NCBI GenBank assembly: GCA_947479915.1
Contig: CANKAU010000007.1
Span: 16,190 to 80,189, forward strand
DNA: 64,000 nt
From: Chloroflexota bacterium
GTDB lineage: Bacteria; Chloroflexota; Dehalococcoidia; UBA2979
Reading direction: 5' to 3'
A program made the translations under genes and the position numbers. Below the pieces are notes generated by a model. That model worked only from the letters and a program-made list of their open reading frames with translations. It searched no databases and was not told the origin of the DNA. Positions within the stretch are counted from its first letter, which is position 1, and every line of letters begins with the position of its first letter. Below are positions 540-38,231 of the stretch, one piece after another.

Positions 540-652
540 CGTCGCGACGATAACACGCGCAGCCGCTGAGAACGCCTCCCGCACGGGCGGTGAGCCGCGT
601 CCGGAGATATGCTGGAGCCACCATCCCTCAGTCCAGCAGCCGGAGCGCGGCC

Positions 653-1321
653 GTGACGAACCCCCTTCCCGACGAGGAACGCACCGAGCCGTTGCGGCTC
701 ACGGTGGTCTCCGACTTCATCTGACCGTGGTGCTACATCGGTCTCGTGGAGATCGAACGGCTGTACCGCAACTGGGACATTCAGCTCGACTGGGCGCCCT
801 TCTTCCTCGACCCGTCCATCCCGCCGGAGGGCCGTCCGCGCGCCCCGCAGGCGCCCGGTAGCCCCGAGACGCCCGTGGAGGCCCGCGGCAAGCGCCTCGG
901 CCTCGACTTCCGTCGAGGTCGCACGTTCACGCCGCACACGATCCTGTCGCTTCAGGCGGGCGAGTGGGCCGCCGCGACCGGGACGACGCAGCAGGTGATC
1001 GACTTCCACCGGGCGCTGTTCAAGGCGTACTTCACGGACTTCGAGGACCTGATGCAGATCGACACGCTCGTCCGGCACGCCGACGAGGTGGGACTGGACG
1101 GCGCGACGCTGCGCGAGGTGCTGGAGCAGGGCACCTTCGCCGACACGACGAACGAGGCGATCGAGCAGTCCTACGCGGTGGGCGTGCAGGCGATCCCGAC
1201 GTTCATCCTCGACGAGAAGTACGCGGTGGTCGGCGCGCAGGAGTACGACACGCTGGAGCGCGTGATGGAGCAGCTCAAGGCGAAGCGCCGCGAGACGCCC
1301 CTCCCCGACCCGCACGCGTAG
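653..1321 (+). CDS. DsbA/FrnE-like thiol:disulfide oxidoreductase with an in-frame TGA at 722-724 in place of the first Cys of the CPWC motif (candidate selenocysteine, otherwise a pseudogene)
   Basis: From GTG at 653 the frame reads MTNPLPDEERTEPLRLTVVSDFI-TGA-PWCYIGLVEIERL..., aligning to the FrnE N-terminus (KIDVWSDIACPWCYIGKRRLE). The listed ORF 746..1321 is the downstream remainder. High GC3 continues upstream of the TGA. Confidence 0.55.
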
Positions 1322-1425: not shown

Positions 1426-1947
1426 TCACTCCGAGTACCCGATCGCCTCAAAGACTGAGACAAATGGTGCCGGAGGCTGCGCGGAGACGGACACCCCGAA
1501 GCACCTTGGGTAATTCGTCGTTGGCGCACCTAGGTACCAATCAGAGAACTTCGGCATCGGGAAGTCGAACGTCCCGCTGCCTTGATCGTCGACTAGTACA
1601 GCCGCCGGAGTCAGTGTCGGTGCAGGATGATCAGTGCCTTGTAGGTGGAGGGCTGCGGAAACTCGGCTCCTCGGTGGAAAACCTGTGATCGACACGGTGA
1701 CTCGCTCACCCGGCTTAGCGGCCAAGGGTGAAATCGCCACTACCCGCGCCTGCCCATCTCTCGCCGCCTGTGATCGGTAGTCGGTACGACTCTCGGCGCA
1801 TTGATCGGGAGCGGGCTGTGCCTGTGTGTCTGTCGCTTGAAGCGACGCGACCGTCGGCGACGCGGTCCTCGTCGGACGAACTGACGGCATTCCGCATGCA
1901 GCGAGAAGCACACAGCCGACGATGGCGGCCCGCCTGATGCGCTTCAT
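1426..1947 (-). CDS. Putative lipoprotein, paralogous to the genes at 12556 and 13182
   Basis: Signal peptide with lipobox (MKRIRRAAIVGCVLLAACG). Shares the motif GERVTVSITGFPP with the RVTLRISGFPATT motif of the downstream paralogs. Confidence 0.55.
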   Translation of the reverse strand: MKRIRRAAIVGCVLLAACGMPSVRPTRTASPTVASLQATDTQAQPAPDQCAESRTDYRSQAARDGQARVVAISPLAAKPGERVTVSITGFPPRSRVSAALHLQGTDHPAPTLTPAAVLVDDQGSGTFDFPMPKFSDWYLGAPTTNYPRCFGVSVSAQPPAPFVSVFEAIGYSE

Positions 1948-1994: not shown

Positions 1995-2450
1995 CTACAC
2001 GCGGCGGGGCAGCTCCACGACGGCGGTGCCCTGCACGGGCTTCTCGCCGCGATCGTTCTCCAGCGTGACGTCGAGGTGGACGGCGCCCGCGCCGGTGCCC
2101 TCGAAGTCGCCCTCACCGTTGACGTCGGTGACCAGCGCCACACACCGGAGCAGATCCTCGTGGTGGACGGGGCGGCGGAACGAGACGTCCAGGCTCAGGA
2201 CGCGGCCCAGCGGGCCCATCCAGTCCGTGACGAGGCGCGTGAGCATCGAGGCTGACATGGGGCCGGGGACGATCGGCGCGGGGAGGCCGGCGGCCTTCGC
2301 ACGCACCGGGTCGGTAAAGCGGCCGCCGCCGTCCGGCAGGCCCGCCGCGGCGATGAACGCCACCACGTGGTCATGCGTCGGCTGCTGGGTCTCCTCGAAC
2401 TCGTCGCCGACAGAGACATCCTCGAAGTAGCGCTGAGTCAGATCGGCCAC
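1995..2450 (-). CDS. MaoC-like (R)-specific enoyl-CoA hydratase, hotdog fold
   Basis: Protein MADLTQRYFEDVSVGDEF... has the MaoC dehydratase signature. Its start is 2 nt downstream of the previous gene's stop. Confidence 0.8.
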   Translation of the reverse strand: MADLTQRYFEDVSVGDEFEETQQPTHDHVVAFIAAAGLPDGGGRFTDPVRAKAAGLPAPIVPGPMSASMLTRLVTDWMGPLGRVLSLDVSFRRPVHHEDLLRCVALVTDVNGEGDFEGTGAGAVHLDVTLENDRGEKPVQGTAVVELPRRV

Positions 2451-2451
2451 G

Positions 2452-3663
2452 CTATTCCCCCTCGCCCGTCGGCTTCACCTGGCGGTGGGCGCTGGTGCTC
2501 TCCACCGCGGCCACATCCTCGCCGTGCTGGTTGGCGTAGCGCGTGCGGCGCACGACAAAGACCATACGGCCGCTGCGGCCGGTCTTCTCGTACACCTCCT
2601 TCACCTGTGCGAAGCCCTCGATCGTGTCACCGGGGCGCACCGGGAGGTAGTACTCGTGCCGCTGCCCGGCCATCATCGTCGTGTCGCCGAAGGTGACCTT
2701 CGGGTCGGGCGGGCCGTCCATGCGCACGGACTGCACGATGCCCGGCGGGGCGATGATCCCCTTGTGCGGGCCGGCCGCTGCGAACGCCTCGTCGGTGTAG
2801 AGCGGATTGGTCTGGTCCAACGCCTCGCAGTACTCCGCGATCAACTCGCGCGTGACCTCGAACTTGCCGACAGGCACCTCGCGCCCCACGACGGAGCGGT
2901 CGTACTCCAGGTCGTCGCCACCCAGGCTGCCCTGCCCGCTGGTGCCCGGCAGGAACACCGCGGCGCCCGAGGGGCGCGGACGCGGCTCGACGCCGTCCTT
3001 CGTGTCGTCCAGGTACATCGGCGCGAACGAGGCGCTCGGGTCGCGCAGCGTGGCGACGAGGTCGTCCATCGTCTTGATGGTGCGGTCGAAGCGGGTGAGG
3101 CAGCGGCCGAGCGCGCTCACGAAGTGCGAGTCCGACGAGCCGATGACGCGCAGCCCGCGCGCATCGGCGAGGTCGAACGCGCGGCCGTTCTCGTAGTCGT
3201 TGCTGCCGCCGTTGAGCGCCTCGATCACCCGGACGCCCTCGAGCGTCACGCCGCGCTCATCGACGTGCTCAACGCAGCCGATGCGCGGACGCCCCGCGTG
3301 CGCACCGACCGCAACACCACCGGTCTCCCACGCGGCCTTGAAGACCTCCTCGTACGGGAGGGATACCGACGACAGATCGAACTTCGCAAGGAACTCCGGC
3401 GTGACGCCGAAGACCAGCACGTGGCCGATCGTCGTCTCCACCTCGACGCCGCGGAGCACGACGGCGTCGTAGCGAGCCGCCAGCTCCGAGTAGTCGCGAT
3501 CGAGGTCGAAGCGCCGGTGCTCGGTGACGACGAAGCCGTCGATCTTGAAGCCGAGCTTGCGGCGGGCGGCGATCCATTTCAGGTAGCCCTCCACCGTGCC
3601 GCCGGCATCATCGGATCCGTCCGAAGAGTGCACGTGGAGATCGAGGTACGTAGCGTCAGGCAT
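2452..3663 (-). CDS. Fusion protein: N-terminal PHP-family metal-dependent phosphoesterase domain plus C-terminal hotdog (MaoC_dehydrat_N / HadA-like) domain
   Basis: Sequence MPDATYLDLHVHSSDGSDD... carries the PHP HxH motif. After a Pro/Gly linker a hotdog domain follows (VGKFEVTRELIAEYCEALDQTNPLYTDEAF...). No stop codon separates the two parts. The long listed ORF 2452..3744 was trimmed to the Met start at 3661-3663. Confidence 0.7.
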   Translation of the reverse strand: MPDATYLDLHVHSSDGSDDAGGTVEGYLKWIAARRKLGFKIDGFVVTEHRRFDLDRDYSELAARYDAVVLRGVEVETTIGHVLVFGVTPEFLAKFDLSSVSLPYEEVFKAAWETGGVAVGAHAGRPRIGCVEHVDERGVTLEGVRVIEALNGGSNDYENGRAFDLADARGLRVIGSSDSHFVSALGRCLTRFDRTIKTMDDLVATLRDPSASFAPMYLDDTKDGVEPRPRPSGAAVFLPGTSGQGSLGGDDLEYDRSVVGREVPVGKFEVTRELIAEYCEALDQTNPLYTDEAFAAAGPHKGIIAPPGIVQSVRMDGPPDPKVTFGDTTMMAGQRHEYYLPVRPGDTIEGFAQVKEVYEKTGRSGRMVFVVRRTRYANQHGEDVAAVESTSAHRQVKPTGEGE

Positions 3664-3740
3664 CAGGCAGGCCTTCCCGCAAACTCCCGGTGGAGCGGCG
3701 TCGGGGTGGAGTGGCGATTGTCGCGCGCAATCGCAGGGCG

Positions 3741-5264
3741 TCAATCCGAAGCGTGATGGTCTTCCGTGAGGCGAGCGCGCACGAGGTGGCGCTGCACCTT
3801 CCCGGATGCCGTGCGCGGCAGCGCGTCTGTGCCCACCTCGATGCGGCGCGGCACCTTGTACGCGGCGAGCCGCGCGCGCAGGTGCGCATCGATCGCCGCG
3901 ACGTCGAGGCCACCCGTGCCGGCTGCCGGCACCACGACCGCAACCACGAGCGCGCCCCAGCGCTCATCCGGGATGCCGACCACCGCGCATTCCTCGACGC
4001 CCGCGAACGCGAGCAGTGCGGACTCGACCTCGGCGGGGTAGACGTTCTCTCCGCCGGAGACGATCAGGTCGTCGCGCCGGTCGGCGACGTAGAGGTAGCC
4101 CTCGTCGTCGAGGTACCCGAGATCCCCCGTGTGCAGCCACCCGTCGCGGATCGCCTCGGCAGTGGCCTCGGGCCGGCCGAGGTAGCCGGCGCAGACGGTC
4201 GGTCCGCTGACGACGATCTCGCCGATCTCGCCGGACGCCGCCTCTGCGCTCACGCCCTCGGCAGTCGCGACCTCGATGCGGACGGTGGTGCCGGGCAGCG
4301 GCAGCCCCGCGGAGCCGAGCTTGCGCAGCGCGTCCGCCGAAGACAGCGTGGCGACCTGCGAGGCGGTCTCGCTGAGGCCGTAGGTCTGCAGCACCGGCAC
4401 TCCACGCGCGGCGGAAGCCTCCAGCAGCGGGCGCGGCGCGGGGCCCCCACCGAGCAGCACGGCACGGAGCGTCGAGGGGTACGGCGCGTCGTCGAGCGCG
4501 TACATGCGCTGCAGCATGTTCGCAACGACCGATAGCAGCGACACGCGCTCCTCGCGCACGGAGCGCACCACGCGCGCCTCGTCGAAGCGCTCGTGGATGA
4601 CGGCGGTCGTGCCGTAGATCGCGCTGCGCAGCAGGATCGACAGCCCACCCACGTGGTACAGCGGCAGGCATGCCAGCCAGCGATCGGCCGCCTCGACACC
4701 GAGGTTCGCGGCCGACGCCACGGCGCTCCAGTAGAAGTTGCCGTGCGTCAGCACCGCGCCCTTCGGGCGTCCCGTAGTGCCGGACGTGTAGATCACGCTG
4801 TGCGGCTGCTCGAACGGGATCGAGGTCGACCCGACGAGCGGCGTCGCCGTGTGCCATGCCTGGTCGTCGGCGGGCAGCAGCGTCACGCCTGCCTCGGCGG
4901 CGGCGGCGCGCGCTTGCTCGAGGTGATCGGCGTCCGCGATGAGGTAGCGCGCGCCCGCGTCGCGCAGCTGCCACGCGATCTCGCCCGCAGTGAGTCGTGC
5001 GTTGTGCGGGGCGAGCATGCCGCCGGCGCGCGTGATCGCGTGCGCGAAGACCGCGAAGCCGTTGCCGTTCGCGTGCAACAGACCGACCGGTTCCCCCGGC
5101 GCGATGCCGAGCGCGGCAAGCCGCCCGGCCGCCGGTGCCACGCGCGCCTCGAGGTCCGCGTAGGTGAGCGCTTCGCCGTTGCACTCGACGGCGAGCGTGT
5201 CGGAGTGCGTCACAGCGCGCCGCGCGACCCAGTCGCCGAGGTCCACCGAGAGCAGTTCCGGCAT
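3741..5264 (-). CDS. menE: o-Succinylbenzoate-CoA ligase (AMP-forming)
   Basis: Adenylate-forming enzyme motifs (YTSGTTGRPKG, GYGLSE) and position in the men operon. Start reassigned to MPELLSVDLG (ATG at 5262-5264); the upstream part of the listed ORF is an Arg-rich artefact. Confidence 0.85.
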   Translation of the reverse strand: MPELLSVDLGDWVARRAVTHSDTLAVECNGEALTYADLEARVAPAAGRLAALGIAPGEPVGLLHANGNGFAVFAHAITRAGGMLAPHNARLTAGEIAWQLRDAGARYLIADADHLEQARAAAAEAGVTLLPADDQAWHTATPLVGSTSIPFEQPHSVIYTSGTTGRPKGAVLTHGNFYWSAVASAANLGVEAADRWLACLPLYHVGGLSILLRSAIYGTTAVIHERFDEARVVRSVREERVSLLSVVANMLQRMYALDDAPYPSTLRAVLLGGGPAPRPLLEASAARGVPVLQTYGLSETASQVATLSSADALRKLGSAGLPLPGTTVRIEVATAEGVSAEAASGEIGEIVVSGPTVCAGYLGRPEATAEAIRDGWLHTGDLGYLDDEGYLYVADRRDDLIVSGGENVYPAEVESALLAFAGVEECAVVGIPDERWGALVVAVVVPAAGTGGLDVAAIDAHLRARLAAYKVPRRIEVGTDALPRTASGKVQRHLVRARLTEDHHASD

Positions 5265-5274
5265 GGCGCTTCCT

Positions 5275-6387
5275 CTACCCCGTGACCCAGTCACCCTCGG
5301 CGACCTGCGCCCACGCGCCGTCCTGCGGCGCGATACCGAGGCCGGGCGCATCGAACGCGCGGAGCATGCCATCGTGCGCGACAAGCGTCTCCGCCACGAG
5401 GTCAGCCGCGAGGTGTTCGCCGGTGCCGAGGCCGTGCGCGATGCCGCCGGGGATCGCCCCGCCGATCGCGCTCGCGAGATGCAGTGCCGCCGCCGTCCCG
5501 ATCGAGGAGTCGAACGTCGTCGTCGCAAACGCGCCGATGCCCAAGCGCGCCGCGCGCTGCGCGATCGCGAACGCGGGTCGGAGTCCCCCGAGGAACATCG
5601 GCTTCAGGACGACGAGGTCCGCCGCGCGCAGTTCGAGGACGCGCTCCAGCGTTGCGGGGTCAGTCACTGACTCATCGGCGGCGATCTTCGGCGCCTCGTC
5701 CCCCAGCGCACGCGACGCCTCGCGCACGCGGGCGAGTGCCTCGACGTCGCCTGCGGCCACGGGCTGCTCGATCAGCTCGATGTGCAGCGGCGCGAGCGCG
5801 CACACGGCTGCGATCGCCGTCCACTCGTCCCACGCGCCGTTGGCGTCGAGGCGGATCGCGGCGTCCGGGACGGCATCCCGCAGTGCGTGGATCCGCCGCA
5901 CGTCGTGCTCGGGGCTGGCGGTGCCCACCTTCGCCTTCAGCACGCGGTAGCCCTGCGCGCGGGCCTCCGCGCCAAAGCGCGCGGTCTCCTCGGGCGTGCC
6001 TTCGCCAATGACCGCGTTCACGCGCACCGCCGGCGCCACGTGCTCCGTCAGCAGCGCGGCGATCGGCACCCCGGCGCGTTGCCCCTCGAGGTCGAGCGCG
6101 ACGACGTCCAGCGCGCAGCGCAGCGCCTGCACTCCGGGCGCACGAGGATCGAGCGCTTCGGCGAGCCCCGCGAGCAGCCCGACGTCGTGCCGCGCCAGCA
6201 GCGCGAGTACGTCTTCGATCGTGCCGTAACCGAGTGATGCGATGGGTGAGGCCTCGCCGTAGCCGACCCGCCCGTCGTCGTCGCGCACCTCGATCAGCAC
6301 GCCGCGGCGATCCGCCATCGCGCCGTGCGCCGCCTCGAAGCGGTGTCGCATCGGCAGGCGGAACGCGCGCCAGCGGAGAGATGCCAT
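5275..6387 (-). CDS. menC: o-Succinylbenzoate synthase (enolase superfamily)
   Basis: MASLRWRAFRLPMRHRF... with the enolase-superfamily fold pattern, 370 aa. ATG at 6385-6387 lies 3 nt from the menA stop. The listed 663-aa ORF over-extends across menA. Confidence 0.85.
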   Translation of the reverse strand: MASLRWRAFRLPMRHRFEAAHGAMADRRGVLIEVRDDDGRVGYGEASPIASLGYGTIEDVLALLARHDVGLLAGLAEALDPRAPGVQALRCALDVVALDLEGQRAGVPIAALLTEHVAPAVRVNAVIGEGTPEETARFGAEARAQGYRVLKAKVGTASPEHDVRRIHALRDAVPDAAIRLDANGAWDEWTAIAAVCALAPLHIELIEQPVAAGDVEALARVREASRALGDEAPKIAADESVTDPATLERVLELRAADLVVLKPMFLGGLRPAFAIAQRAARLGIGAFATTTFDSSIGTAAALHLASAIGGAIPGGIAHGLGTGEHLAADLVAETLVAHDGMLRAFDAPGLGIAPQDGAWAQVAEGDWVTG

Positions 6388-6389
6388 GA

Positions 6390-7328
6390 CTAGTTCGAGA
6401 GGCCGATCGCGAGCAGCAGCCCGAAGATCAGGTGCAGGCGCGCCATCGCACGGAGCGCGGCGTTCAGCGGCGGCCCGTCCGTACGGCGCAGCGAGACGGC
6501 GACCGGCATGATCGCAGCGGGCACGGAAAGCCACGACAGCAGCACGAGGCCGGAGAAACTCCCGAGGAGCCACAGCCCCGCTGCCGCGACGTACGCCCCC
6601 GCGACCACGACCACCAGTTCTGCGCGCGCGAGCCGCCGACCGAGGTACACCGCGAGCGTGTACTTCCCGGCGAGCCGGTCCTGGTCGATGTCGCGCACGT
6701 TGTTCACCACGAGGATCGCGGTCACCGTCAGCGCCACGGGCACCGACGCCGCGAGCACGTTGCTCGTCACCCGACACGCGTCCACGGCGCAGGACTGCAC
6801 GTAGTACGTCCCGGCGACCGCGACGACGCCGAAGAAGATGAACACGAAGACCTCGCCCAGGCCGCGATAGCCGAAGGGCCACGGGCCGCCGGTGTAGGTG
6901 ACCGCTGCGAGCATCGAGGCGAGCCCGATCGCGACGATCGGCCAGCCTCCGAGGTACGTGAGGTAGAGGCCGGCCACGGTCGCGAGCGCGAAGAAGGCGA
7001 TCACGCCCAGCGTGACCTGCCGTTCGGACAGCAGCCCGCGCTGCGTGACGCGGATGGGGCCGAGGCGCGTGTCCGTGTCCGCGCCTCGACGAAAGTCTGA
7101 GAGGTCGTTCGCGAGATTCGCGCCGGCCTGCAGAGCGAGCGCACCGAAGAGCGCCGCGAGCGCGGCCAGTGGCGCGCGGATGCCATCGTGCACGGCGACG
7201 CCGGTGCCCACGGCGACCGGAACAACGGCGGCGGTCAGCGTGGGCGGGCGGATCGCCATCAGCCACACGCGGAAGCGGCTCATCGTCGGCTCCGAGGCGG
7301 CACGACCGGCGGCCGAGGCCTTAGCCAT
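6390..7328 (-). CDS. menA: 1,4-Dihydroxy-2-naphthoate polyprenyltransferase (UbiA family)
   Basis: Polytopic membrane protein with the [15 protein letters not shown] motif. The N-terminus aligns to MenA. Overlaps the menB stop by 8 nt. Confidence 0.85.
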
Positions 7329-8151
7329 GGAACGGCAGTCGCTGGAACTTGCTGAAGTCGGGCTGGCGCTTCTCGACGAACGAGTTGCGGCCTTCCTTCG
7401 CCTCGTCGGTGGTGTAGTAGAGCATCGTCAGATCGCCCGCGAGCACCTGGAGGCCCGTCGCGCCGTCCGTGTCCGCGAGGAACGCGTTCTTCAGGAAGCG
7501 GATCGCGGTGGACGACTTCGCGAGGATCTCGTTCGCCCAGGTCACGCCCTCGGCTTCGAGGTCTTCGAGCGGCACGACCTTGTTTACGAGGCCCATGTCC
7601 AGCGCCTCCTGCGCACCGTACTGGCGGCAGAGGTACCAGATCTCGCGGGCCTTCTTCGTCCCGACGAGTCGCGCGAGCATGGACACGCCATAGCCCGCGT
7701 CGAACGAACCGACGCGCGGGCCGGTCTGCCCGAAGCGGGCGTTCTCTGCGGCGATCGTGATATCGCAGATGACGTGCAGCACGTGGCCGCCGCCGATCGC
7801 GTAGCCCGCCACGAGGGCGATCACCGGCTTCGGCATCTCGCGGATAAAGCGCTGGAGCGGGAGCACGTTCAGCCGCGCGCTGCCCTCGGTGTCCACGTAG
7901 CCGGCGTGGCCGCGGATGCGCTGATCGCCGCCGGAGCAGAAGGCGCGGCCGCCGGCGCCGGTGAACAGCACCACGCCGATCGCGTCGTCCTTCGCCGCGT
8001 CCATGAACGCGTCGGCCAGCTCGTCGATGGTCAGCGGGCGGAAGGCGTTGTGCACCTCGGGGCGGTTGATGGTGATCTTGGCGATCCCACCCGACTTCTC
8101 GTAGACGATGTCGGTGTAGGTCTTGGCCGCCTGCCAGCGGATGTCGGTCAT
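7321..8151 (-). CDS. menB: 1,4-Dihydroxy-2-naphthoyl-CoA synthase (crotonase fold)
   Basis: [39 protein letters not shown]...FCSGGDQ... is unmistakably MenB. ATG at 8149-8151. Confidence 0.95.
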
Positions 8152-8174
8152 CGGTCCCCCTGCACGTTTCGGGA

Positions 8175-9029
8175 TCAGGACTGGCGCTCGCGCACACCCA
8201 CCAGGAACTCGCGCACCATCGCGTTGAACGCGTCCGGCCGCTCCAGGTGTGCCGCGTGGCCGGCGTCCTCGATCAGACGCATCGTAATGTCCGGGATGGC
8301 TTCGGCCATCTCCCGCGCGATCACGCTGAACTTCGTGTCCAGCGTACCCGCCGTCAGGTGCACAGGCACCCCGATCCCACCGAGGCGGTCGCCCACCCAC
8401 TCCTGTGAGCCGGTGCCCATGCCGCGCAACGACCCCGCGAGCCCCACCGGGTTCTGCGCGAGCCGCCCTCGACGCAGCGCCGCGCGCTGGTCAGCCGAAA
8501 GCGTGCGCTGCTGGCTGTCCCACAAGGCGATGGACTGCCAGAAGTCGACGAACGCCTCCAGCCCCTCCCGTTCGAGGCGCTGCGCCAGCACCTCGTCCGC
8601 CGCCACGCGCGCTTCACGCTCCTCGGCCGTCGCGAGGCCGGGCGTGGCGCCCTCCAGGAACAGCGCGGAGACGACGTCGGGGCGGTGCACCGCCACCTGC
8701 AGCGCGACGCGCCCGCCCAGCGAGTAGCCGAGCCACGCCGCACGCTCGTGCCCGAGCACGCGGAGCAGCGCCGCGAGGTCATCGACGGCGCGGCGCATCT
8801 GGTAGCGGTCGAGGGCGACCGGGCAGCCCGAGCGCCCGTGCCCGACGAGGTCGACGGCGATCGTGGTGAAGTCGGGCGCGAGTACCTCGACGAGCGAGCG
8901 CCACGAGGCACCCGTGCCGGTGAAGCCGTGGATCAGGACGACGGGCGGGCCGTTCCCCGCCACCTCGGCGTGCAGGTTCAGCCCATCGATGTCGACGTCG
9001 TGGCCGGTCGAGGCGATCGGAGCGGCCAC
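8175..9029 (-). CDS. menH: 2-Succinyl-6-hydroxy-2,4-cyclohexadiene-1-carboxylate synthase (alpha/beta hydrolase)
   Basis: Alpha/beta-hydrolase motifs ([20 protein letters not shown]). GTG start at 9027-9029 lies immediately after the menD stop. The upstream part of the listed ORF is an artefact. Confidence 0.8.
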
Positions 9030-9033
9030 CGGG

Positions 9034-10818
9034 CTACGCCCGCGCCGCGACCACTGCGAGGCGGACGGCCTCCGCGGCGCGCGCCCACACCTGCTGGTGC
9101 AGCGCAACGTTGCGGTCGCGGTCGGTGCGGATTTCGAGGACATCGAGGCCCGGGCGCTGGAGCGCGTCGCCGATCGCCGCGCTCGCGGCGGCGCCGGGTT
9201 CGAGCAGTGCGTGTCGGCCGCCGTGCAGCGCCACCGCGTGGCGGAGGTCGAGGCCGTGCGGCGTGCCCCACCACTCCTCGAAGCGCGCGGGCATGCTCGT
9301 GCGCTGGGGGAGGAAGGAGAAGATGCCACCGCCGTCGTTGTTCACCAGTACGACGGTGAGGCTCAGGTCGTGGCGACGGATCGGCCAGAGGCCGTTCACG
9401 TCGTGCAGGAACGACAGGTCGCCGATCATCAGCGCGACCGGCCCGCCGGCCACCGCGGCCGCACCGGCAGCGCCCGAGATGACCCCGTCGATGCCACTGG
9501 CGCCGCGCGTGCCGACGATGCGGACGGCACGGTCCATGTTCGGAAAGAACGAGTCGATATCGCGCACGGGCATCGAGTTACCCGCGACGAGTGTCGCGCC
9601 CTCGGTCAGCGCGCCCGCGATGTCGAGGACCACCTGGCCTTCGAACGGCTCGTCGAGGTTGGCGATCGCGTCATCCAGCGCGGTGCGCGCCGCGGCGTTC
9701 GCGTCGCACCACAGCGCCAGCCACTCCGGGCGCGCCGAGGAACGCGCGTCGAGCGCCTCGAGCAGCGCGGAGCAGAACGCCCCGGGGTCGGCGGCCACAG
9801 CGAGCGAGGAGCGCAGGTCGGGGTCACGCCACCCGCCGCTCGCAGCCACGGCCGGGTCGACGAGGATCTGCGTCGTCGCGGTGAGCGAGGCGAGCCATGT
9901 GAATACGGGCTTCGAGGTCGGCTGCGCGCCGAAGCGGATGGTGACCTCGGGCGTGGCGGGCTCCGTGAAGGCGGTGACCCGGGCGAGCACGTCCGCACGG
10001 TCGATGACCGCGTCGAACGAGTGGTGCCCTGCGCGCATCCCGGACAGCGGATCCGCGATGATCGGCCAGCCCAGCACCTTCGCGAGCGCCGCGATTGCGG
10101 CGGCGGGGAGCCCGCTCGACTCCGGCCCGCAGACGATGACACCTCGACGTCCCGACACCACCGAGGCGACCCGGGCGATGTCGTTCGGGGTGGGCGCGGC
10201 AGGCGCGGCGATGGCGCGGCGCATCTCCGGCGTGTCGAGGTCGAACGGGAGCGTCTCGGAGTCCGCGTCCACCAGCGGCTCGCGGAACGGGATGTTCAGA
10301 TGCACCGGCCCCGCGGGCGCCTCGCACGACACGGCAGCGGCACGCGCGCCCGTCGCGGCGGCGTACCGCTCGAGGTCGGCGAGCGCACCGGCGTCGGCGA
10401 CTGGGAGGTCGACGGCCCACTTCACGTGCGTGGAAAAGATGCCGACCTGGTCGACCGTCTGGGCGGTGCCCAGGTCGCGCGCCTCGGGCGGGCGGTCGGC
10501 GGTGAGGAAGATCAGCGGGACGCGCGACAGGCGCGCCTCGACGGCGGCGGGGAGGAAGTTCGCGGCGGCGGTGCCGGACGTGCAGGCGAGGGCCACCGGC
10601 TCGCCGGTCTGCCTCGCGATGCCGAGCGCGAAGTAGCCCGCGGAGCGCTCGTCGAGGTGCAGCCACACCTTGAACGGCGACCCGGGCGACGTGGCGGCGA
10701 TGGTGATGGGGGTGTTCCGAGAGCCCGGAGCGATGACGAAGTGCCGCACACCGTTCTGGTGAAGCGACTGCAGCAGCGCGTGCACGGTGCGATCGGCGGG
10801 CTGGGCCATCCAACCCAT
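9034..10818 (-). CDS. menD: SEPHCHC synthase (ThDP-dependent)
   Basis: MGWMAQPADRTVHALLQSLHQNGVRHFVIAPGSRNTPI... with the ThDP-binding motif GDLSFLHD...NNDGGGIF. Confidence 0.9.
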   Translation of the reverse strand: MGWMAQPADRTVHALLQSLHQNGVRHFVIAPGSRNTPITIAATSPGSPFKVWLHLDERSAGYFALGIARQTGEPVALACTSGTAAANFLPAAVEARLSRVPLIFLTADRPPEARDLGTAQTVDQVGIFSTHVKWAVDLPVADAGALADLERYAAATGARAAAVSCEAPAGPVHLNIPFREPLVDADSETLPFDLDTPEMRRAIAAPAAPTPNDIARVASVVSGRRGVIVCGPESSGLPAAAIAALAKVLGWPIIADPLSGMRAGHHSFDAVIDRADVLARVTAFTEPATPEVTIRFGAQPTSKPVFTWLASLTATTQILVDPAVAASGGWRDPDLRSSLAVAADPGAFCSALLEALDARSSARPEWLALWCDANAAARTALDDAIANLDEPFEGQVVLDIAGALTEGATLVAGNSMPVRDIDSFFPNMDRAVRIVGTRGASGIDGVISGAAGAAAVAGGPVALMIGDLSFLHDVNGLWPIRRHDLSLTVVLVNNDGGGIFSFLPQRTSMPARFEEWWGTPHGLDLRHAVALHGGRHALLEPGAAASAAIGDALQRPGLDVLEIRTDRDRNVALHQQVWARAAEAVRLAVVAARA

Positions 10819-10849
10819 CTTATCCCTGTGTGAAGACAGCGTCGCGAGG

Positions 10850-10927
10850 CGGAGGAGCGTCGCGCTCCTCCGGGGCGTTCGAGGCGCACGAGGCGGCCCA
10901 CCCCTGCCCCTCCCGGCGCGGGAGGGG
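10850..10927 (-). other. Two GC-rich perfect hairpins in the menF-menD intergenic region: CGGAGGAGCG-tcg-CGCTCCTCCG (10850-10872) and CCCCTCCCG-gcg-CGGGAGGGG (10907-10927)
   Basis: Seen directly as inverted repeats with 3-nt loops inside the 288-nt non-coding gap between menF and menD. No U-tract follows either hairpin. Confidence 0.4.
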
Positions 10928-11106
10928 TTCTGAATCAGATGGATGATGCGGGGGTTGCACCCCCAACGCCCCCCAGGACGCGCTGCGGTAGGCAGCGCGG
11001 CGGGACGAGAACGGGACGTGCACTCGGGCAACCCGCACCTGCTTCGGCCCCTCGCCTGCGAAGCGGAAGAGGGCGGCGGTGAGGGTTCCGCCGTCCGAGG
11101 GGACGA

Positions 11107-12447
11107 CTACGCGCCGAGCGCCTCGGACAGGGGGCGGTACTTCAGTTGGACTTCGTCGAGCTCCTGCTGCGGGACGGAGTCGCCCATGATGCCGTTCCCC
11201 GCGAACAGCCACGCACGAGGCCCCCGCACCACGGCGGAGCGCAGCCCGACGGCGAACTCGCCGTCACCGGCGCCGTCCATCCAGCCCACCGGGCCGGCGT
11301 ACCAGCCGCGGTCGAACGCCTCGTGCTGGGTGATGACTTCGCGGGCGCGTTCGAAGGGCCAGCCGCAGACGGCGGGCGTGGGGTGGAGGCGCTGGACGAG
11401 GTCGAGGACGTCCACGCCCGGGCGCACCCGGCCGCTGATCTCCGTCGACAGGTGCTGGATGTTGCGCAGACGGCGGAGCTGCGGCTGGTTCGGCGCGACG
11501 AGGTCCTCGGTCGCGCCGTCCAGGCGCTCGCGGATCGCGCGCACGACCGTCTCGTGCTCGATGCGGTTCTTCGCACTCTCAAGGAGCGCGGTGCCGAGGC
11601 GCTCGTCCTCCTCGGGGTCGGTGCCGCGCCGCGTCGAACCCGCGAGGCCGAGTGCGCGCACGCGCCCCTGGGTGAGCGAGACGAGCAGCTCCGGCGATGC
11701 GCCGAGGAACGTGGCGTCCCCGCTGGTCATGGTGAACAGGTGGCAGTCGGCGTAGTTCGCCCGCAGCCGCGCCAGCGCCCGCCCGATCGAGATCGGGGCG
11801 TCGCCGGCCAGCGTCTGCGTGGAGGCGAGCACGGCCTTCTCGTACAGCCCGGCGCGCACCTCGGACGCGATCGTGGCGACGCTGGAGAGCCAGCGCTCCC
11901 GGTCAATCGGGGTCTCGACCCGCAGCGCGGTGGCGTCGAGGTCGCCCGGCGACCGCTGGGCACGCTCGACGAGCGCGGCGACGTCGTTCGGGGCGGCACT
12001 CGGCGCGAGGATCAGCGCGTTCGACTCGCCGGTGGCGAGGAACAGCACGCGCGGCAGCACCAGCCATCCGGCGCCGAAGCCCTCCCACGGCGTCTTCGCC
12101 GGGACGTTCGGGTTGAAGCGGAAGCCGCCGAGGAGTCTCGGCCGCAGCCCCGGCAGGTCGCCCCCGCCGGGCCGGTCCACCAGTGCGCGCGCCTGTGCGC
12201 CCAACGCGCCCGGCCCCGCGCCCCACGGTGCCTCGATGCGCCCCGCCTCGCCGACGGCGACCATCGCCAGCCCGAGCGCCGGCCGCTCGTACGAGGCGAC
12301 GACTCCCGCGCCCTGCGGGTCGTCCAGCAGTCGACGGGGGTCGAAGGAGTCCGGCAGCGTCAGCGACAGGAACGCGTCCGCGCCCGACTTCCGCCGTGCC
12401 GCCTCGATGCGCGCGAGCACGTCCCCGGCGTCGATGTCACTCGCCAC
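11107..12447 (-). CDS. menF: Isochorismate synthase
   Basis: MASDIDAGDVL... with the chorismate-utilising enzyme C-terminal domain (GGDGEFAVGLRSAVV, FAGNGIMGDS). GTG start at 12445-12447. Confidence 0.85.
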   Translation of the reverse strand: MASDIDAGDVLARIEAARRKSGADAFLSLTLPDSFDPRRLLDDPQGAGVVASYERPALGLAMVAVGEAGRIEAPWGAGPGALGAQARALVDRPGGGDLPGLRPRLLGGFRFNPNVPAKTPWEGFGAGWLVLPRVLFLATGESNALILAPSAAPNDVAALVERAQRSPGDLDATALRVETPIDRERWLSSVATIASEVRAGLYEKAVLASTQTLAGDAPISIGRALARLRANYADCHLFTMTSGDATFLGASPELLVSLTQGRVRALGLAGSTRRGTDPEEDERLGTALLESAKNRIEHETVVRAIRERLDGATEDLVAPNQPQLRRLRNIQHLSTEISGRVRPGVDVLDLVQRLHPTPAVCGWPFERAREVITQHEAFDRGWYAGPVGWMDGAGDGEFAVGLRSAVVRGPRAWLFAGNGIMGDSVPQQELDEVQLKYRPLSEALGA

Positions 12448-12475
12448 GATCGGTGCTCGCTTCTGGTGGGCTGCG

Positions 12476-12503
12476 TCGGTGGGGTACTTCCAGTATAGGC
12501 AGC
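12476..12503 (-). promoter_or_regulatory. Promoter-like element upstream of menF, carrying a TATACT -10 hexamer (minus strand)
   Basis: Minus-strand sequence GCTGCCTATACTGGAAGTACCCCACCGA lies about 40 nt upstream of the menF GTG. It is almost identical to the element at 13140-13168. Confidence 0.4.
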
Positions 12504-12555
12504 AGCCCGGTGCGGGCGAGGCGTTAGCGAGGCGGGACGCCGTTCGACTCAGGGA

Positions 12556-14620: not shown

Positions 14621-14851
14621 CTACCGCGCCGCGACGGGCGGCACGAGGACGTGCAGCACGGACGTGAGTGCCATCGCCAGCACGAGCAGCGAGGCGAGCG
14701 CGATCGGCGTCGCCGCGGCCCACGCGAGGAACGCGGAGTACGGCCGCAGTCGTCCCCACGCCCAGCGCCCCACGAGGAACGCGCCGAGCCACGGCAGCGC
14801 GTAGACCACGCCCCACCCGGCCTCGATCGCCAGCGTCTCCAGATCCGGCAT
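14621..14851 (-). CDS. Small hydrophobic membrane protein (76 aa), hypothetical
   Basis: ORF with high GC3 and two predicted TM helices, convergent with the DUF983 gene. Confidence 0.4.
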   Translation of the reverse strand: MPDLETLAIEAGWGVVYALPWLGAFLVGRWAWGRLRPYSAFLAWAAATPIALASLLVLAMALTSVLHVLVPPVAAR

Positions 14852-14931: not shown

Positions 14932-16680
<1,749 letters not shown>

Positions 16681-33568: not shown

Positions 33569-34454
33569 GCGTGCGGCGTCTGCGCCAACGGGTGCGCTGC
33601 CTTGGCCTTCCGGGGTGACCCTGATCGCGGCTGCGTGGGCGACTCGCTCGGCGCCGTCGCCGGAGCGGAGCGGGGTGGAGGCCCTGCGACGATCCTACGA
33701 GGCAGCAGCCCCGCGTCGCAAACCACCGGCCGGCAGCGGCAAGTGGATTCGCGCCCGCGCCTCGGCGGGGGCTACGATCCCCGGCATGTGGGAAGCACCG
33801 GGCCGCGATCGAGGATCCTCCGAGCCGCCGGGCGATGCGCCCACGGGTGGTGACGCCCTCGGCGGGGCTCCTGACTCCAGCCGCCCGGCGAACCCGTGGC
33901 CGCGGCTGCTCGCGTTCGCCGCCGTGGTGGGCATCGTCGTCGTGCTGACGGGGACGTGCCTCGTGTCCTACGCGCGGCCGCCAGAGCGCGAGCTGCGCGC
34001 CTCGTTCGCGGAGTTCAGCATCGCGGTGCCGAAGTTCCTGCCTGTCACCACCTTCGGCGCGGACGCCGGGGGACGCACCTTCGGCGCGTGGGTGACCGTG
34101 AACGCCGACGGCCGCGTCTTCGCCGTGCTGTCGAGGTCGCCCGAGACCGGGTGCCACGTCCGCTGGGACGGCGGCGCCCCCGGAGCAGCGCTCCCCGACG
34201 GACAGTTCATCGACCCCTGCGGCCCCGCGCGCTACGGCGCGAACGGCGCGGCGCTGAACAACACTGCTCCCCGCGACCTGCACACCTTCCCCGGCCGCGT
34301 CGAGGGCCGTCGCGACGTCATCGTGCCGATCGCCACGCTCATCCTCGGCGCGTGCCGCACAGACGGCGCCACGGGCTGCTCGAAGACCACCGGTGCAGAG
34401 ACGCGCGCGCTCCCACAAACAGGACTGCCGCCCGAGGTCGGGCGGCAGCCGTAG
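33567..34454 (+). CDS. Hypothetical membrane-anchored protein (one TM). Start uncertain; alternative ATG at 33786
   Basis: High GC3 from 33567. TM segment WPRLLAFAAVVGIVVVLTG. The C-terminal domain has conserved Cys/His but no clean Rieske motif. Confidence 0.45.
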   Translation: MRAASAPTGALPWPSGVTLIAAAWATRSAPSPERSGVEALRRSYEAAAPRRKPPAGSGKWIRARASAGATIPGMWEAPGRDRGSSEPPGDAPTGGDALGGAPDSSRPANPWPRLLAFAAVVGIVVVLTGTCLVSYARPPERELRASFAEFSIAVPKFLPVTTFGADAGGRTFGAWVTVNADGRVFAVLSRSPETGCHVRWDGGAPGAALPDGQFIDPCGPARYGANGAALNNTAPRDLHTFPGRVEGRRDVIVPIATLILGACRTDGATGCSKTTGAETRALPQTGLPPEVGRQP

Positions 34455-34478: not shown

Positions 34479-34868
34479 CTACCAGATGCCGAGCGCGAGC
34501 TTGACGTCCTCGGACGCCATGGTGCGCGGATCCCAGGGGGGCTGCCAGACGAGGTTCACCTCGACGTCGAGGACGTTCGGGAGCTGCGCCACCTTGTGGT
34601 AGATCATGCCCTGCAGCATCGGCCCCACCGGGCACGCCGGAGAAGTGAGCGTCAGGTCGACCTGCACCAGGCCGTCGTCCTCGATGTTCACGCCGTAGAG
34701 CAGACCGAGATCGACGATGCTCATGCGGAGTTCGGGGTCCTCGACGGTCTGGAGCACCGCGCGCACCTCGTCCTCGGTCGGCGGGCCGTCGTGTGCGGGG
34801 ATTTCCACGGGCGCGGCTTCAGCGTGCTCGTGGTGGTGCTGGTGGTCGTGGACGTGCGCCTCGGTCAT
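34479..34868 (-). CDS. sufT: Fe-S cluster assembly protein SufT (DUF59/MIP18 family)
   Basis: DUF59 motif VEDPELRMSIVDLGLLYGV...TSPACP, with a His-rich N-terminus. Confidence 0.8.
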   Translation of the reverse strand: MTEAHVHDHQHHHEHAEAAPVEIPAHDGPPTEDEVRAVLQTVEDPELRMSIVDLGLLYGVNIEDDGLVQVDLTLTSPACPVGPMLQGMIYHKVAQLPNVLDVEVNLVWQPPWDPRTMASEDVKLALGIW

Positions 34869-34870
34869 GG

Positions 34871-35338
34871 CTAGGCGCTCCTTTCATCGGTCGTGACAGC
34901 GCCGCCTTCACCAACGAGCGCCTGTTCGAGCGTCTTCCATGAGAGCGAGGCGCACTTCACGCGCGCCGGGAACTTCGCGACGCCGATCAGCGCCTCGATG
35001 TCATCGAACCCGTCGATGCCGGGGGACTCCGCAGTGACCATCATCTGCTGGAACGCATCGATGCCGCCGCGTGCCTCCGTGACCGTGCGGCCCTTCACGT
35101 ACTCGGTCATCATGCTGGCCGAGGCCTGCGAGATGGAGCAGCCGCGCCCGGAGAACGAGATGTCGACGATGTGGTCGTCCGCGACGGACACGTCGATGCG
35201 CACCTGATCGCCGCAGAGCGGGTTCGAGCCGTCCGCGCTGCACGTCGGCGCGTCGATGCCGCCGTGGTTGCGCGGCTGGCGGTAGTGGTCGAGGAGGATC
35301 TCGCGGTAGAGATCGTCCAGCAGCGAGCCAGTGGTCAT
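34871..35338 (-). CDS. sufU: SufU (NifU/IscU-like sulfur acceptor)
   Basis: NPLCGD...GRGCSIS motifs. Confidence 0.85.
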   Translation of the reverse strand: MTTGSLLDDLYREILLDHYRQPRNHGGIDAPTCSADGSNPLCGDQVRIDVSVADDHIVDISFSGRGCSISQASASMMTEYVKGRTVTEARGGIDAFQQMMVTAESPGIDGFDDIEALIGVAKFPARVKCASLSWKTLEQALVGEGGAVTTDERSA

Positions 35339-36609
35339 GAGCCGACTCCGAAGAACGCCGACGTCGCCTCGAGCGCCGACGCCAGCGCGTCCACCTCGGC
35401 GGTCGTGTTGTAGATGTAGAACGAGGCACGCGCGGTGGCAGGCACATCGAGCGCCGCCATTACCGGCTGCGCGCAGTGGTGTCCCGTGCGGATCGCGACG
35501 CCACGCGTGTCGAGGAGCTGACCCACGTCGTGCGGGTGGACGCCCTCCAGCTCGAAGGAGACGACGCCACCGCGCTGCAGCGCGTCCATCGGCCCGAAGA
35601 TCGAGACGCCGGGCACGTCGGCCAGCCGTCGCAGCGCGTAGTCCGTGATCTCGATCTCGTGGCGGCGCACCTCGTCCATGCCGAGCGCCGACAGGTAGTC
35701 GACGGCAGCACCGAGGCCGATCGCGTCGGCGATGTTGGGCGTGCCCGCCTCGAACTTCGCGGGGACGTCGGCCCAGGTGGAATGCTCCATGGTCACGCTA
35801 AGGATCATGTCGCCGCCGCCCATGAACGGATCCATGGAATCCAGCAGCGGCAGCCGGCCCCACAGCACGCCGATGCCGGTCGGCCCGAGCATCTTGTGCC
35901 CCGAGAACGCGAGGAAGTCGACGCCCAGCGCCTGCACGTCGACGGCCATGTGCGGCACCGACTGCGCACCGTCGATGAGCACGAGCGCACCCTGAGCCTT
36001 CGCCAGCGGGATGATTTCCTGCAGCGGGACGATCGTGCCCAGCGCGTTCGACATCGCCGTGATCGACAGCAGCTTCGTCTTCGGGCCGATGATCTGGCGG
36101 GCGACCTCGAGGTCCAGCGTCCCGTCCGGCAGCATCGGGATGTACTTCACCACGATGCCCCGCTCGTCGCGCAGCATCTGCCACGGGACGATGTTGGAGT
36201 GGTGCTCGATCTCGGAGACGACCACCTCGTCGCCGGCCTGCAGGAATTTCCGTGCCCAGCCGTGCGCCACGAGGTTGATCGACTCGGTGGTGTTGCGCGT
36301 GAAGATGACCTCGCGCGCATCGGATGCGCCGATGAACGCCGCGATCTTCACGCGGGCGCCCTCGTACAGCTCGGTCGCCTCCACGGACAGCGTGTGGACG
36401 CCGCGGTGGATGTTCGCGTTGTGGTCGCGGTAGAAGCGCGTCAGTTCCGCGATCACCTGCACCGGCTTCTGGCTGGTGGCGGCGTTGTCGAGGTAGACGA
36501 GCCCGACACCCGGCGCGACCTCGCGCTTGAGGATCGGGAAGTCGCGGCGGATACGCGTGATGTCGAAGGGCAGGCGCGCGCCCGGCTGGGAGTGTGCGGT
36601 AAGCGTCAC
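35335..36609 (-). CDS. sufS: Cysteine desulfurase SufS
   Basis: Class-V aminotransferase with the active-site lysine region (SGHKMLGPTG) and RTGHHCA. GTG start at 36607-36609 overlaps the Rieske gene by 4 nt. Confidence 0.9.
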   Translation of the reverse strand: MTLTAHSQPGARLPFDITRIRRDFPILKREVAPGVGLVYLDNAATSQKPVQVIAELTRFYRDHNANIHRGVHTLSVEATELYEGARVKIAAFIGASDAREVIFTRNTTESINLVAHGWARKFLQAGDEVVVSEIEHHSNIVPWQMLRDERGIVVKYIPMLPDGTLDLEVARQIIGPKTKLLSITAMSNALGTIVPLQEIIPLAKAQGALVLIDGAQSVPHMAVDVQALGVDFLAFSGHKMLGPTGIGVLWGRLPLLDSMDPFMGGGDMILSVTMEHSTWADVPAKFEAGTPNIADAIGLGAAVDYLSALGMDEVRRHEIEITDYALRRLADVPGVSIFGPMDALQRGGVVSFELEGVHPHDVGQLLDTRGVAIRTGHHCAQPVMAALDVPATARASFYIYNTTAEVDALASALEATSAFFGVGS

Positions 36610-36923
36610 TGTGCCGCCTCGCAATCGATGATCAGGTCGTCGCCCTCGCGGGTGACGGCGTAGGCCTGCACGCTCTTCACGGCGGGGAGCGAGATCACTC
36701 GCCCCGTCTTCGCATCGAACTGCGCGCCGTGTCGAGGACACAGGATCCGCCCGTTGCGGATGCGCCCCTCGCCCAGCGGGCCGCCGTCGTGCGTGCAGAC
36801 GTTGTCGATGGCGTAGTACTCGCCGTCGACGTTGCTGAGGGCGAGCGAGCGACCGGCGCACTCCACCACGCGCACCTCGTTCAGGGGCACGTCGGAAGCC
36901 GCCGCTACGCGCTCGTCACTCAT
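36606..36923 (-). CDS. Rieske [2Fe-2S] ferredoxin embedded in the suf operon
   Basis: CTHDGGPL ... CPRHGAQF Rieske motifs. Confidence 0.8.
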   Translation of the reverse strand: MSDERVAAASDVPLNEVRVVECAGRSLALSNVDGEYYAIDNVCTHDGGPLGEGRIRNGRILCPRHGAQFDAKTGRVISLPAVKSVQAYAVTREGDDLIIDCEAAQ

Positions 36924-36998
36924 CGTGGCTCCTCACTCGAGGCCCGAAGGTCCGGATCGGGGCGGGCCGAGTCTTCCCGGCACCAGCCCCGAAATGAA

Positions 36999-38231
36999 TT
37001 ACAGATCGGCGTTGACGATCTTCTGCTGGACGCGCTCCAACATGTCCTCGGACAGCGCCGCGAACGCCTCGTCGTTGAGCACGCTGGCGAAGAAGCCGCC
37101 GACGAGGAGCTTCAGCGCGCCGCGGTAGTCGATGCCGCGGCTCTGCAGGTAAAAGAGCGCTTCCTGGTCGACGGGTCCCACGGTCGCGCCGTGGCCACAG
37201 CGGATCACGTCCGCTGTGAGGATCTCCAGCACTGGGTCGGAGTCCGCCTTCGCGCGGTCGGAGAGCAGCAGATTGCGGTTCTCCTGGTTCGCGGCGGATC
37301 CGCCTGCCGTGGTCTCCACGCGGGTGATGCCGTAGTACACCGAGCGCGAGGCGCCCGCGAGCGCGGCCTTGATCTCGACGTCGCTCGTGGACTTCGGGCC
37401 CATGTGGTCCTGCAGCGTGACGAAGTCGAAGTGCTGGTCTGCGTCGCCGAGCGCGATGCCACGGATCAGCGAGTTCGCCCCCTGGCCCTCGATCAGCGCC
37501 TCGATCTGCTGCTTCAGCAGGTGCCCGCCGAGCGCGAGCGACGCCACCTGCACGTCCGCGTTCCGCCCGATGCGCGAGCGCAGCGTGGTGAACTCGACCG
37601 TGCTGGCGCCCCAGTCGCCGTCGAACAGCACGCGGACGCGCGCGTCGTCGTTCGCAACGATCTCGACGACCGCCGCCACGAGCAGCGGCGCCTCCGTCGA
37701 GCGGTTCTTCACGATGACCGTGACCTCGCTGTTGGCTTCGGCCACCACGAGGATGCGCGGATAGATGGCCCCGGTCGTGCCGGCCACGTCCACCGTGACG
37801 GGCGCCTCGAAGGCCCCACCGCGGGGAGCGTGGACGAAGACGCCACCGGTCCACTGCGCCGCGTTCGCGGCCACGAACTTGCTCTCGGTGCCCTGCACCA
37901 CGGAGCCCAGCGCGCCCTCGACAGCGGTCGCCTGAGCGGCGTCCGTCAGCGCGGCCGCAATCGTGCCGGCGAACCCGCCGGACGGCGCGCTCCCCGTCAC
38001 ACGCGGCGCGAACGCCGCGTCGGGCGCGAACGCCTCGATCGTGTGGCCGCTGAGGTCCGTGTACTTCCACGGGCGCAGCGCGGGCGTCGGCATCGGGGTC
38101 GCGGCGAAGGCGCGTGCGCCCTCCTCGCGCGCCCGCACGAGCCACCCGGGCTCGCTGCGGGCGGCCGCGGCCGCGGACACCTGCGCTTCGGCGTACACGC
38201 CGAGGTCAGTGGTGATCTGCGTGTCCGCCAT
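36999..38231 (-). CDS. sufD: Fe-S cluster assembly protein SufD
   Basis: SufB/SufD family C-terminal beta-helix region. Confidence 0.9.
   Translation of the reverse strand: MADTQITTDLGVYAEAQVSAAAAARSEPGWLVRAREEGARAFAATPMPTPALRPWKYTDLSGHTIEAFAPDAAFAPRVTGSAPSGGFAGTIAAALTDAAQATAVEGALGSVVQGTESKFVAANAAQWTGGVFVHAPRGGAFEAPVTVDVAGTTGAIYPRILVVAEANSEVTVIVKNRSTEAPLLVAAVVEIVANDDARVRVLFDGDWGASTVEFTTLRSRIGRNADVQVASLALGGHLLKQQIEALIEGQGANSLIRGIALGDADQHFDFVTLQDHMGPKSTSDVEIKAALAGASRSVYYGITRVETTAGGSAANQENRNLLLSDRAKADSDPVLEILTADVIRCGHGATVGPVDQEALFYLQSRGIDYRGALKLLVGGFFASVLNDEAFAALSEDMLERVQQKIVNADL

Follow-up and report, generated by a model that had tools for sequence, protein, structure and literature searches.

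An in-frame TGA at the active site of a FrnE/DsbA-like oxidoreductase gene from a Dehalococcoidia genome very probably encodes selenocysteine

When a reading frame is interrupted by a TGA codon precisely where its homologs carry a catalytic cysteine, is the gene broken, has its start been misplaced, or does it encode a selenoprotein? The question is raised by a locus near the beginning of the 64,000-nucleotide stretch of DNA analyzed here (the whole of which we call the window; positions 16,190 to 80,189 of the forward strand of contig CANKAU010000007.1, GenBank assembly GCA_947479915.1), which comes from a Chloroflexota bacterium of the class Dehalococcoidia (UBA2979). An original prediction, made from the sequence alone, had proposed that the frame at 653-1321 encodes a DsbA/FrnE-like oxidoreductase in which the TGA is read as selenocysteine (Sec). 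On the evidence of sequence comparison, we consider this very probably correct (with a probability of about 0.93), that is, 653-1321 would be a genuine selenoprotein gene for a 222-residue FrnE/DsbA-like oxidoreductase (COG2761, PF01323) with the redox motif Sec24-Pro-Trp-Cys27. We take COG2761 to be named after FrnE. The features on which the argument turns are the following.

653..1321, + strand: full coding sequence of the very probable FrnE/DsbA-like selenoprotein, 222 residues including Sec24, GTG start, TAG stop
642..645, + strand: GGAG, a likely Shine-Dalgarno sequence, 7 nt ahead of the GTG start at 653, read off the sequence
722..724, + strand: in-frame TGA, the codon of residue 24, predicted to specify selenocysteine and opposite the first Cys of CPWC in alignments
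722..733, + strand: predicted redox motif U-P-W-C (TGA CCG TGG TGC)
738..756, + strand: putative hairpin of the bacterial selenocysteine insertion sequence (SECIS) type, stem 738-745/749-756, loop GUG 746-748
746..1321, + strand: truncated 191-residue open reading frame (ORF) of gene callers and public records, in all likelihood an annotation artefact, without the active site

Translation of 653-1321 on the forward strand yields a single frame of 222 codons followed by a terminal TAG, and its sole internal stop is the TGA at 722-724, codon 24 (VVSDFI-TGA-PWCYIGL or, in a longer context, ...LTVVSDFI-TGA-PWCYIGLVEIERL...); the predicted peptide that spans this codon reads LTVVSDFI-U-PWCYIGLVEIER. 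The third-position GC content amounts to 0.82 in the 40 codons that precede the TGA and to 0.90 downstream of it, values that are coding-like on both sides in this 70% GC genome. The coordinates and the continuous, coding-like frame of the original prediction are thus borne out by translation and third-position GC alike.

Gene callers and GenBank present the gene differently, as a 191-residue protein initiated at GTG 746, and the first rival explanation is that this annotated protein is the real product, a DsbA fold without the redox center, preceded by an untranslated leader. Public members of the corresponding cluster are of similar length (191-197 amino acids) and are labeled 'DsbA family protein' or 'hypothetical protein'. 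Against this explanation, inspection of the sequence ahead of GTG 746 reveals no motif comparable to the GGAG that precedes 653, and the 23 codons upstream of the TGA are kept as protein, the N-terminal segment VTNPLPDEERTEPLRLTVVSDFI aligning with the N-termini of the full-length Cys homologs P0009 and P0002, which begin MTN.... Moreover, GTG 746-748, the 'start' of the truncated ORF, is merely a Val codon located in the apical loop of the hairpin, which is why the same mis-start recurs across the public annotations of the family. The shorter protein would, in addition, lack strand 1 and the CxxC motif of its own fold. Altogether, we regard the 746-start product as an extremely unlikely alternative to the 222-residue selenoprotein.

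The identity of the full-length protein is well defined. With Cys substituted at the TGA, it matches the Pfam family DSBA (PF01323) over residues 16-204 with an E-value of 2.3e-27 and 96.5 bits (cut-off 25.6), and the best relative with a solved structure is FrnE of Deinococcus radiodurans (PDB 5CNW and related entries; E = 4e-23). In the alignment with FrnE, the TGA falls on the first Cys of CPWC (SDIACPWCYIG versus SDFIUPWCYIG), and the same holds for the alignment with 16 Cys-containing orthologs, in agreement with the placement originally proposed. For a structural view, an AlphaFold model was built on P0009, a natural Cys homolog that is 73% identical to the window protein (mean predicted local distance difference test score, pLDDT, of 87.8). 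The model consists of strand 1 (14-20), helix 1 (25-40) with the CxxC motif at its start, a helical insertion, the invariant I-P-T-F loop and then two strands; the motif is accordingly predicted to lie between strand 1 and helix 1, as in DsbA and thioredoxin folds. The best PDB fold matches of the model are FrnE (5XWH, 5CNW) and SCO1869, with FrnE entries making up the top five Foldseek matches (TM-score about 0.7), and later matches include YjbH, kappa-class glutathione S-transferase, 2-hydroxychromene-2-carboxylate (HCCA) isomerase and DsbAs. The loop corresponds to the following feature.

1193..1204, + strand: loop I-P-T-F (residues 181-184), where DsbA/thioredoxin-fold enzymes have their cis-proline loop

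The family shows no variation at P182 and T183, and the loop directly precedes strand 183-186 in the model; we presume from the fold that its proline is cis. Cys27 is the single cysteine of the protein, whose C-terminus reads ...KAKRRETPLPDPHA, so the redox couple would have to be Sec24/Cys27. The N-terminus (VTNPLPDEERTEPLR), inspected by eye, is acidic and hydrophilic, contains no hydrophobic signal sequence and leads straight into model strand 1, and the protein is therefore probably cytoplasmic.

Is the TGA itself real and is it maintained? The truncated ORF is recorded, identical at the protein level, on 22 contigs of the same species. Four of these contigs, from four assemblies (three in ENA and one in NCBI), were read, and all four carry the TGA and an identical upstream frame, so that, with separate assemblies in agreement, a sequencing error can be dismissed. 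In the original description of DsbA-like selenoproteins, the safeguard against such errors was that the TGA be kept in at least two different sequences (PMC1088965); here, it is found in 63 other species-level genomes. Two kinds of homologs emerged when 5.8 billion proteins were searched, namely, many of 181-199 residues that start just past the CPWC position and full-length ones of 213-251 residues that read ...SDFICPWCY.... We further scanned genomes, one per species, and retrieved 80 loci, nearly all labeled Chloroflexota, mostly Dehalococcoidia or Tepidiformales metagenome-assembled genomes (MAGs), with the N-terminus assessable in 79. Across these 79 genomes, codon 24 is TGA in 63 and TGC or TGT in 16, the classic pattern of Sec/Cys pairs, which settles in favor of the proposal the ortholog check it had called for; no frameshift, second stop or other disruption was detected in any of the 79 loci. 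Together with the window, the 63 genomes make up the 64 TGA forms compared below. TGA forms also occur on finished chromosomes such as OZ252250.1, OZ241365.1 and OZ242017.1.

Conservation upstream of the TGA is of the kind expected of translated sequence. The five codons before it are kept as V-S-D-F-[IV] at the protein level while varying synonymously (the Ser codon, for example, is TCC, TCG, TCA or AGC), so this segment is translated in the same frame as the downstream part. In a neighbor-joining tree, the Cys forms fall into at least 4 or 5 separate clades inside a Sec-dominated family, and one of them, L011, is nested within the TGA clade of the window itself and has a mismatched stem and an altered loop in place of the hairpin. 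The residues that follow PWCY differ in the same manner, being mostly [IV]-G-L-[VG]-E-V-[ED] in the TGA forms and variable (TEIE, ETID, KELE and others) in the Cys forms.

These observations bear on the second rival explanation, a pseudogene in which a nonsense mutation of TGC or TGT to TGA inactivated a Cys-containing FrnE-like gene. A single base separates these codons, and the Sec machinery was not seen in the window, both of which are compatible with such decay. A pseudogene would, however, hardly show TGA at codon 24 throughout 63 species-level genomes, the proteins of which are 43% to 87% identical to that of the window, two intact halves conserved as protein through synonymous change, a maintained hairpin specific to the TGA forms, and no second disruption in any of 79 loci; we consider this reading next to inconceivable. 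Both the pseudogene and the truncated product had been named as alternatives from the outset, both are contradicted by the fact that the upstream peptide and the TGA are conserved, and both can be regarded as effectively excluded.

If the TGA is read as Sec, an RNA element that directs the recoding should be located nearby. The hairpin begins after 13 nt downstream of the TGA, with arm 738-745 (UCGGUCUC) pairing with 749-756 (GAGAUCGA); it can alternatively be drawn as a 7-bp stem with the loop CGUGG. Folded alone, it has an energy of -9.5 kcal/mol (z = -2.8 versus shuffled sequences). Its loop begins 21 nt past the UGA (20 nt in the 7-bp form), which is inside the range of 16-37 nt after the UGA used by bSECISearch. 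The family consensus is UCGGYCU(C)-GNN-(G)AGRUCGA and, when the 64 TGA forms are aligned without gaps, 99.3% of the cells of the 8-bp helix are paired. At pair 21-31, most TGA forms have C-G, whereas the window shares U-A with its three closest relatives (L008-L010), both bases having changed in a compensatory manner; G-U wobbles preserve the pairing in two further sequences. RNAalifold, run independently, finds a single conserved structure, which is this hairpin (7 bp, loop CGNNG). A lower stem, 727-733/763-769, that is predicted for the window sequence is not kept in the relatives and was excluded from the element.

The most telling comparison is that between the Sec and Cys forms. All 7 core pairs are kept in 64 of the 64 TGA forms versus 2 of the 16 Cys forms (Fisher p = 8e-14, uncorrected for phylogeny), and in the Cys forms the hairpin columns are paired in 68% of the cells. 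Entropy at third codon positions follows the same line: in the TGA forms, the stem columns (18, 21, 24, 30 and 33) have 0-0.3 bit and the loop and flanking columns 0.8-1.6 bit, whereas in the Cys forms the stem columns reach 0.7-1.4 bit. This contrast is the signature expected of an RNA element that is needed only in the presence of a UGA codon. The 8-bp stem-loop that had been noticed in the single sequence thus turns out to be the only structure conserved in the family.

Several points weigh against Sec insertion directed by this hairpin. The fold energy is modest by itself (z of about -2.2 to -2.8), and there is only one covarying pair, which probably reflects a single event in the window's own clade; the case for the hairpin rests mainly on sequence conservation and on the contrast between Sec and Cys forms, not on covariation. 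No Rfam family matches it, either across the whole window at gathering thresholds or in 600-900 at E <= 10, where only chance matches appeared, a negative result of little weight because bacterial SECIS elements are diverse. Finally, a search of the 64-kb window, the preceding 9.3 kb and related loci totaling about 1.3 Mb yielded no selA, selB, selD or tRNA for Sec (tRNA-Sec).

The last of these points leads to the third rival explanation, that is, read-through without Sec, be it that UGA has been reassigned to Trp or Gly across the genome, that it undergoes near-cognate suppression or that Cys is inserted at this site. In its favor, the Sec machinery is not demonstrated in this genome, and TGA is a minority stop, used by 9 of the 31 genes that were called with confidence in the window and by 3 of 20 on L090, a locus on the same contig. 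Reassignment is nonetheless disfavored because many well-supported genes do terminate at TGA, past which no coding signal is seen, and our scan of the window found no other convincing in-frame TGA with coding signal on both sides; candidates at 5668, 20097, 43139, 44828, 52895, 55090 and 62763 proved to be antisense frames, gene ends or abutting genes. UGA remains an ordinary stop in this genome, and the recoding is site-specific. Suppression by other means is at odds with the site itself, the position of a catalytic Cys where only Sec or Cys makes chemical sense, and with the hairpin, which lies at SECIS distance and whose conservation is confined to the TGA forms, in a class documented as Sec-using. 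Non-Sec read-through is accordingly very unlikely in our view, and Sec insertion at codon 24 remains the preferred reading.

Stop codon usage in this lineage is peculiar in its own right. High-GC bacteria usually prefer TGA as a stop, and in the window the count is 21 TAG, 9 TGA and 1 TAA. Independent gene calls on L090:1-20576 give 15 TAG, 3 TGA and 2 TAA, and the 73 high-GC related loci (among L008-L087) taken together with the window give 367 TAG, 234 TGA and 75 TAA, with the same picture whether the genome has a Sec or a Cys form. TGA dominates in one clade (L006, L033), accounting for 15 of 20 gene ends in L006. A literature search found nothing on TAG-dominated stop usage at high GC. Given that TAG accounts for about 70-75% and TGA for 15-30% of gene ends, and that a 19-nt hairpin is nearly invariant in more than 60 species, it is conceivable, if improbable, that the lineage has moved termination off UGA (for example, through weak activity of release factor 2, RF2, or strong competition by SelB) and uses a lineage-specific SelB recognition sequence.

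With regard to the Sec machinery, the search for the sel genes consisted of tblastn with E. coli SelA, SelB and SelD from NC_000913, and ARAGORN detected no tRNA-Sec in the window or in any of the fetched loci. The only tblastn hits were three weak matches to SelB, one of them on L083; the other two were read and are TypA/BipA-type GTPases by sequence. A 91-nt ARAGORN 'tRNA-???' at 33650-33740 on the reverse strand, with a two-base anticodon, lies inside a long coding ORF, lacks Rfam support and is a false positive. The trait is, nonetheless, on record for the phylum and class, and tRNA-Sec with an 8/4 acceptor/T-stem is reported in Chloroflexi. Chloroflexi with selenoproteins were reported in 2006 (PMC1794560), Chloroflexi tRNA-Sec species have been described (PMC5389517), and two Dehalococcoidia MAGs, carrying 49 and 46 selenoprotein genes, rank among the ten richest bacteria in BSepDB, which admits only species with at least two of the key genes SelA, SelB and SelD (PMC13326102). 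A further indication comes from one related locus, L052, where a second in-frame TGA (14734-14736, + strand) lies 4 kb from a TGA-form DsbA-like gene. It occurs in the motif GMGC-U-GSC of an N-terminal domain that matches the UGSC family (NCBIfam NF041046) with E = 9e-14, short of the curated cut-off. A C-terminal region of about 400 residues is fused to this domain, and a hairpin with the loop CGUGAU starts 5 nt downstream of the TGA. The Chloroflexi and Dehalococcoidia literature and this second TGA lend indirect support to the Sec trait, and we infer that this genome depends on SelB and tRNA-Sec.

Under this reading, UGA 722-724 would not act as a stop during translation; instead, the hairpin at 738-756 would serve as a bacterial SECIS that recruits SelB-GTP-Sec-tRNA(Sec) to the ribosome, and Sec would be inserted. 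At the N-terminus of helix 1, Sec24 would then be an exposed nucleophile that may cycle between the selenolate and a selenenylsulfide with Cys27, reducing or isomerizing disulfides in substrates. For both this redox chemistry and the physiological substrate, we infer by analogy with D. radiodurans FrnE.

How does the protein compare with known selenoproteins and oxidoreductases? The statement that DsbA-like selenoproteins had already been described proved correct: a DsbA-like protein (COG2761, UxxC) with a predicted bacterial SECIS is among the 15 selenoprotein families identified by Zhang, Fomenko and Gladyshev in the Sargasso Sea data in 2005 (PMC1088965). The family was detected in 41 organisms in a 2016 survey (PMC5029168) and is listed as 'DsbA-like protein form 1, PF01323, UxxC' in a 2026 review (PMC13188914). 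The window protein shares with form 1 the PF01323 domain, the UxxC motif with Sec in place of the first Cys, the widespread Cys homologs and a hairpin within the coding sequence just past the UGA, with a small loop that contains G. In a comparison by description, rather than residue by residue with AACY01178397 and NIP15863.1, there is no difference in kind; what is particular to this member is that it comes from a high-GC Dehalococcoidia MAG and that its public record consists of the truncated ORF only.

Deinococcus radiodurans FrnE, a disulfide oxidoreductase of the cytoplasm, has in common with the window protein the C-P-W-C-Y-I-G context, the absence of a signal peptide and the thioredoxin fold with a helical insertion, at about 30% identity, but has Cys where the window protein is predicted to have the Sec nucleophile. 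FrnE also possesses additional C-terminal cysteines (PDB 5CP1 is its C239S mutant) that are absent from the window protein, in which Cys27 stands alone. We take C239 to be part of a C-terminal CxxxxC tail, and a flexible tail with a second Cys pair to be a defining trait of FrnE. The resemblance to periplasmic DsbA of E. coli is limited to the fold class and a motif of the CxxC type where helix 1 begins (TM-score about 0.5-0.6); the window protein differs in having no signal peptide, the dipeptide PW instead of PH, and only 13-18% identity. DsbA of the E. coli type carries a CPHC motif and is reoxidized by DsbB. Membership of the window protein in a periplasmic DsbA/DsbB system was considered and rejected, given the missing signal peptide and the absence of a DsbB- or VKOR-like gene among the annotated neighbors. 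As for the RNA element, it resembles bacterial SECIS elements such as that of E. coli fdhF in its location in the coding sequence shortly past the UGA and in its small apical loop with a G, and departs from them in lacking a match to an Rfam covariance model, in the unusual invariance of its 19 nt and in its single covarying pair.

The very probable selenoprotein gene stands alone. Its upstream neighbor, encoding RNase D, is divergent, and downstream a spacer of 673 bp (1322-1994, 64% GC) separates it from a MaoC gene; in close relatives, this spacer is much shorter, about 70-430 bp. An ORF within the spacer (1426-1947, reverse strand) has a lipoprotein-like N-terminus (MKRIRRAAIVGCVLLAACG) and a third-position GC of 0.64, with no Pfam match, no homolog in the related loci and no gene called at this place on L090. 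Past the spacer, on the opposite strand and thus convergent, lie genes for a MaoC-like hydratase and a PHP_C/FAS1_DH protein, and then the menaquinone biosynthesis genes, which belong to the following region.

1995-12555 of the window, - strand (L090:11250-20576): menaquinone cluster region, with the men-type domains AMP-binding, MR_MLE, UbiA, ECH, abhydrolase, thiamine pyrophosphate (TPP) enzyme and chorismate-binding

About 30 related genomes, some with Sec and some with Cys forms and with identities as low as about 50%, share the order RNase D / DsbA-like / MaoC / PHP/FAS1_DH / men genes. Shared ancestry most simply explains the kept order; a functional tie between the FrnE-like enzyme and the adjacent, syntenic menaquinone cluster is a weaker possibility. 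The remainder of the window encodes housekeeping functions, including citrate synthase, a Lon-like protease and a Suf-type Fe-S assembly cluster (34482-39775, reverse strand) that consists of FeS_assembly_P, a class-V aminotransferase (SufS-like cysteine desulfurase) and SufB/D. SufS-type enzymes can double as selenocysteine lyases; nothing in the window links the Suf cluster to the selenoprotein.

The gene at 653-1321 is a further, publicly misannotated member of a selenoprotein family known since 2005, will not surprise a specialist and may already be listed in BSepDB, and the finding leaves the current understanding of selenoproteins unchanged. Its value is, in part, that for annotation: the public records of this gene and of most of its relatives are proteins of 181-199 residues without the active site, whereas the real product would be a 222-residue selenoenzyme. 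Beyond that, the family offers a clean comparative case of an RNA element overlaid on coding sequence, in which the hairpin fixes the residues after PWCY to roughly [IV]-G-L-[VG]-E-V-[ED] only when the UGA is present, and it illustrates both the repeated exchange of Sec and Cys within one bacterial class and the decay of the hairpin once a lineage has converted to Cys.

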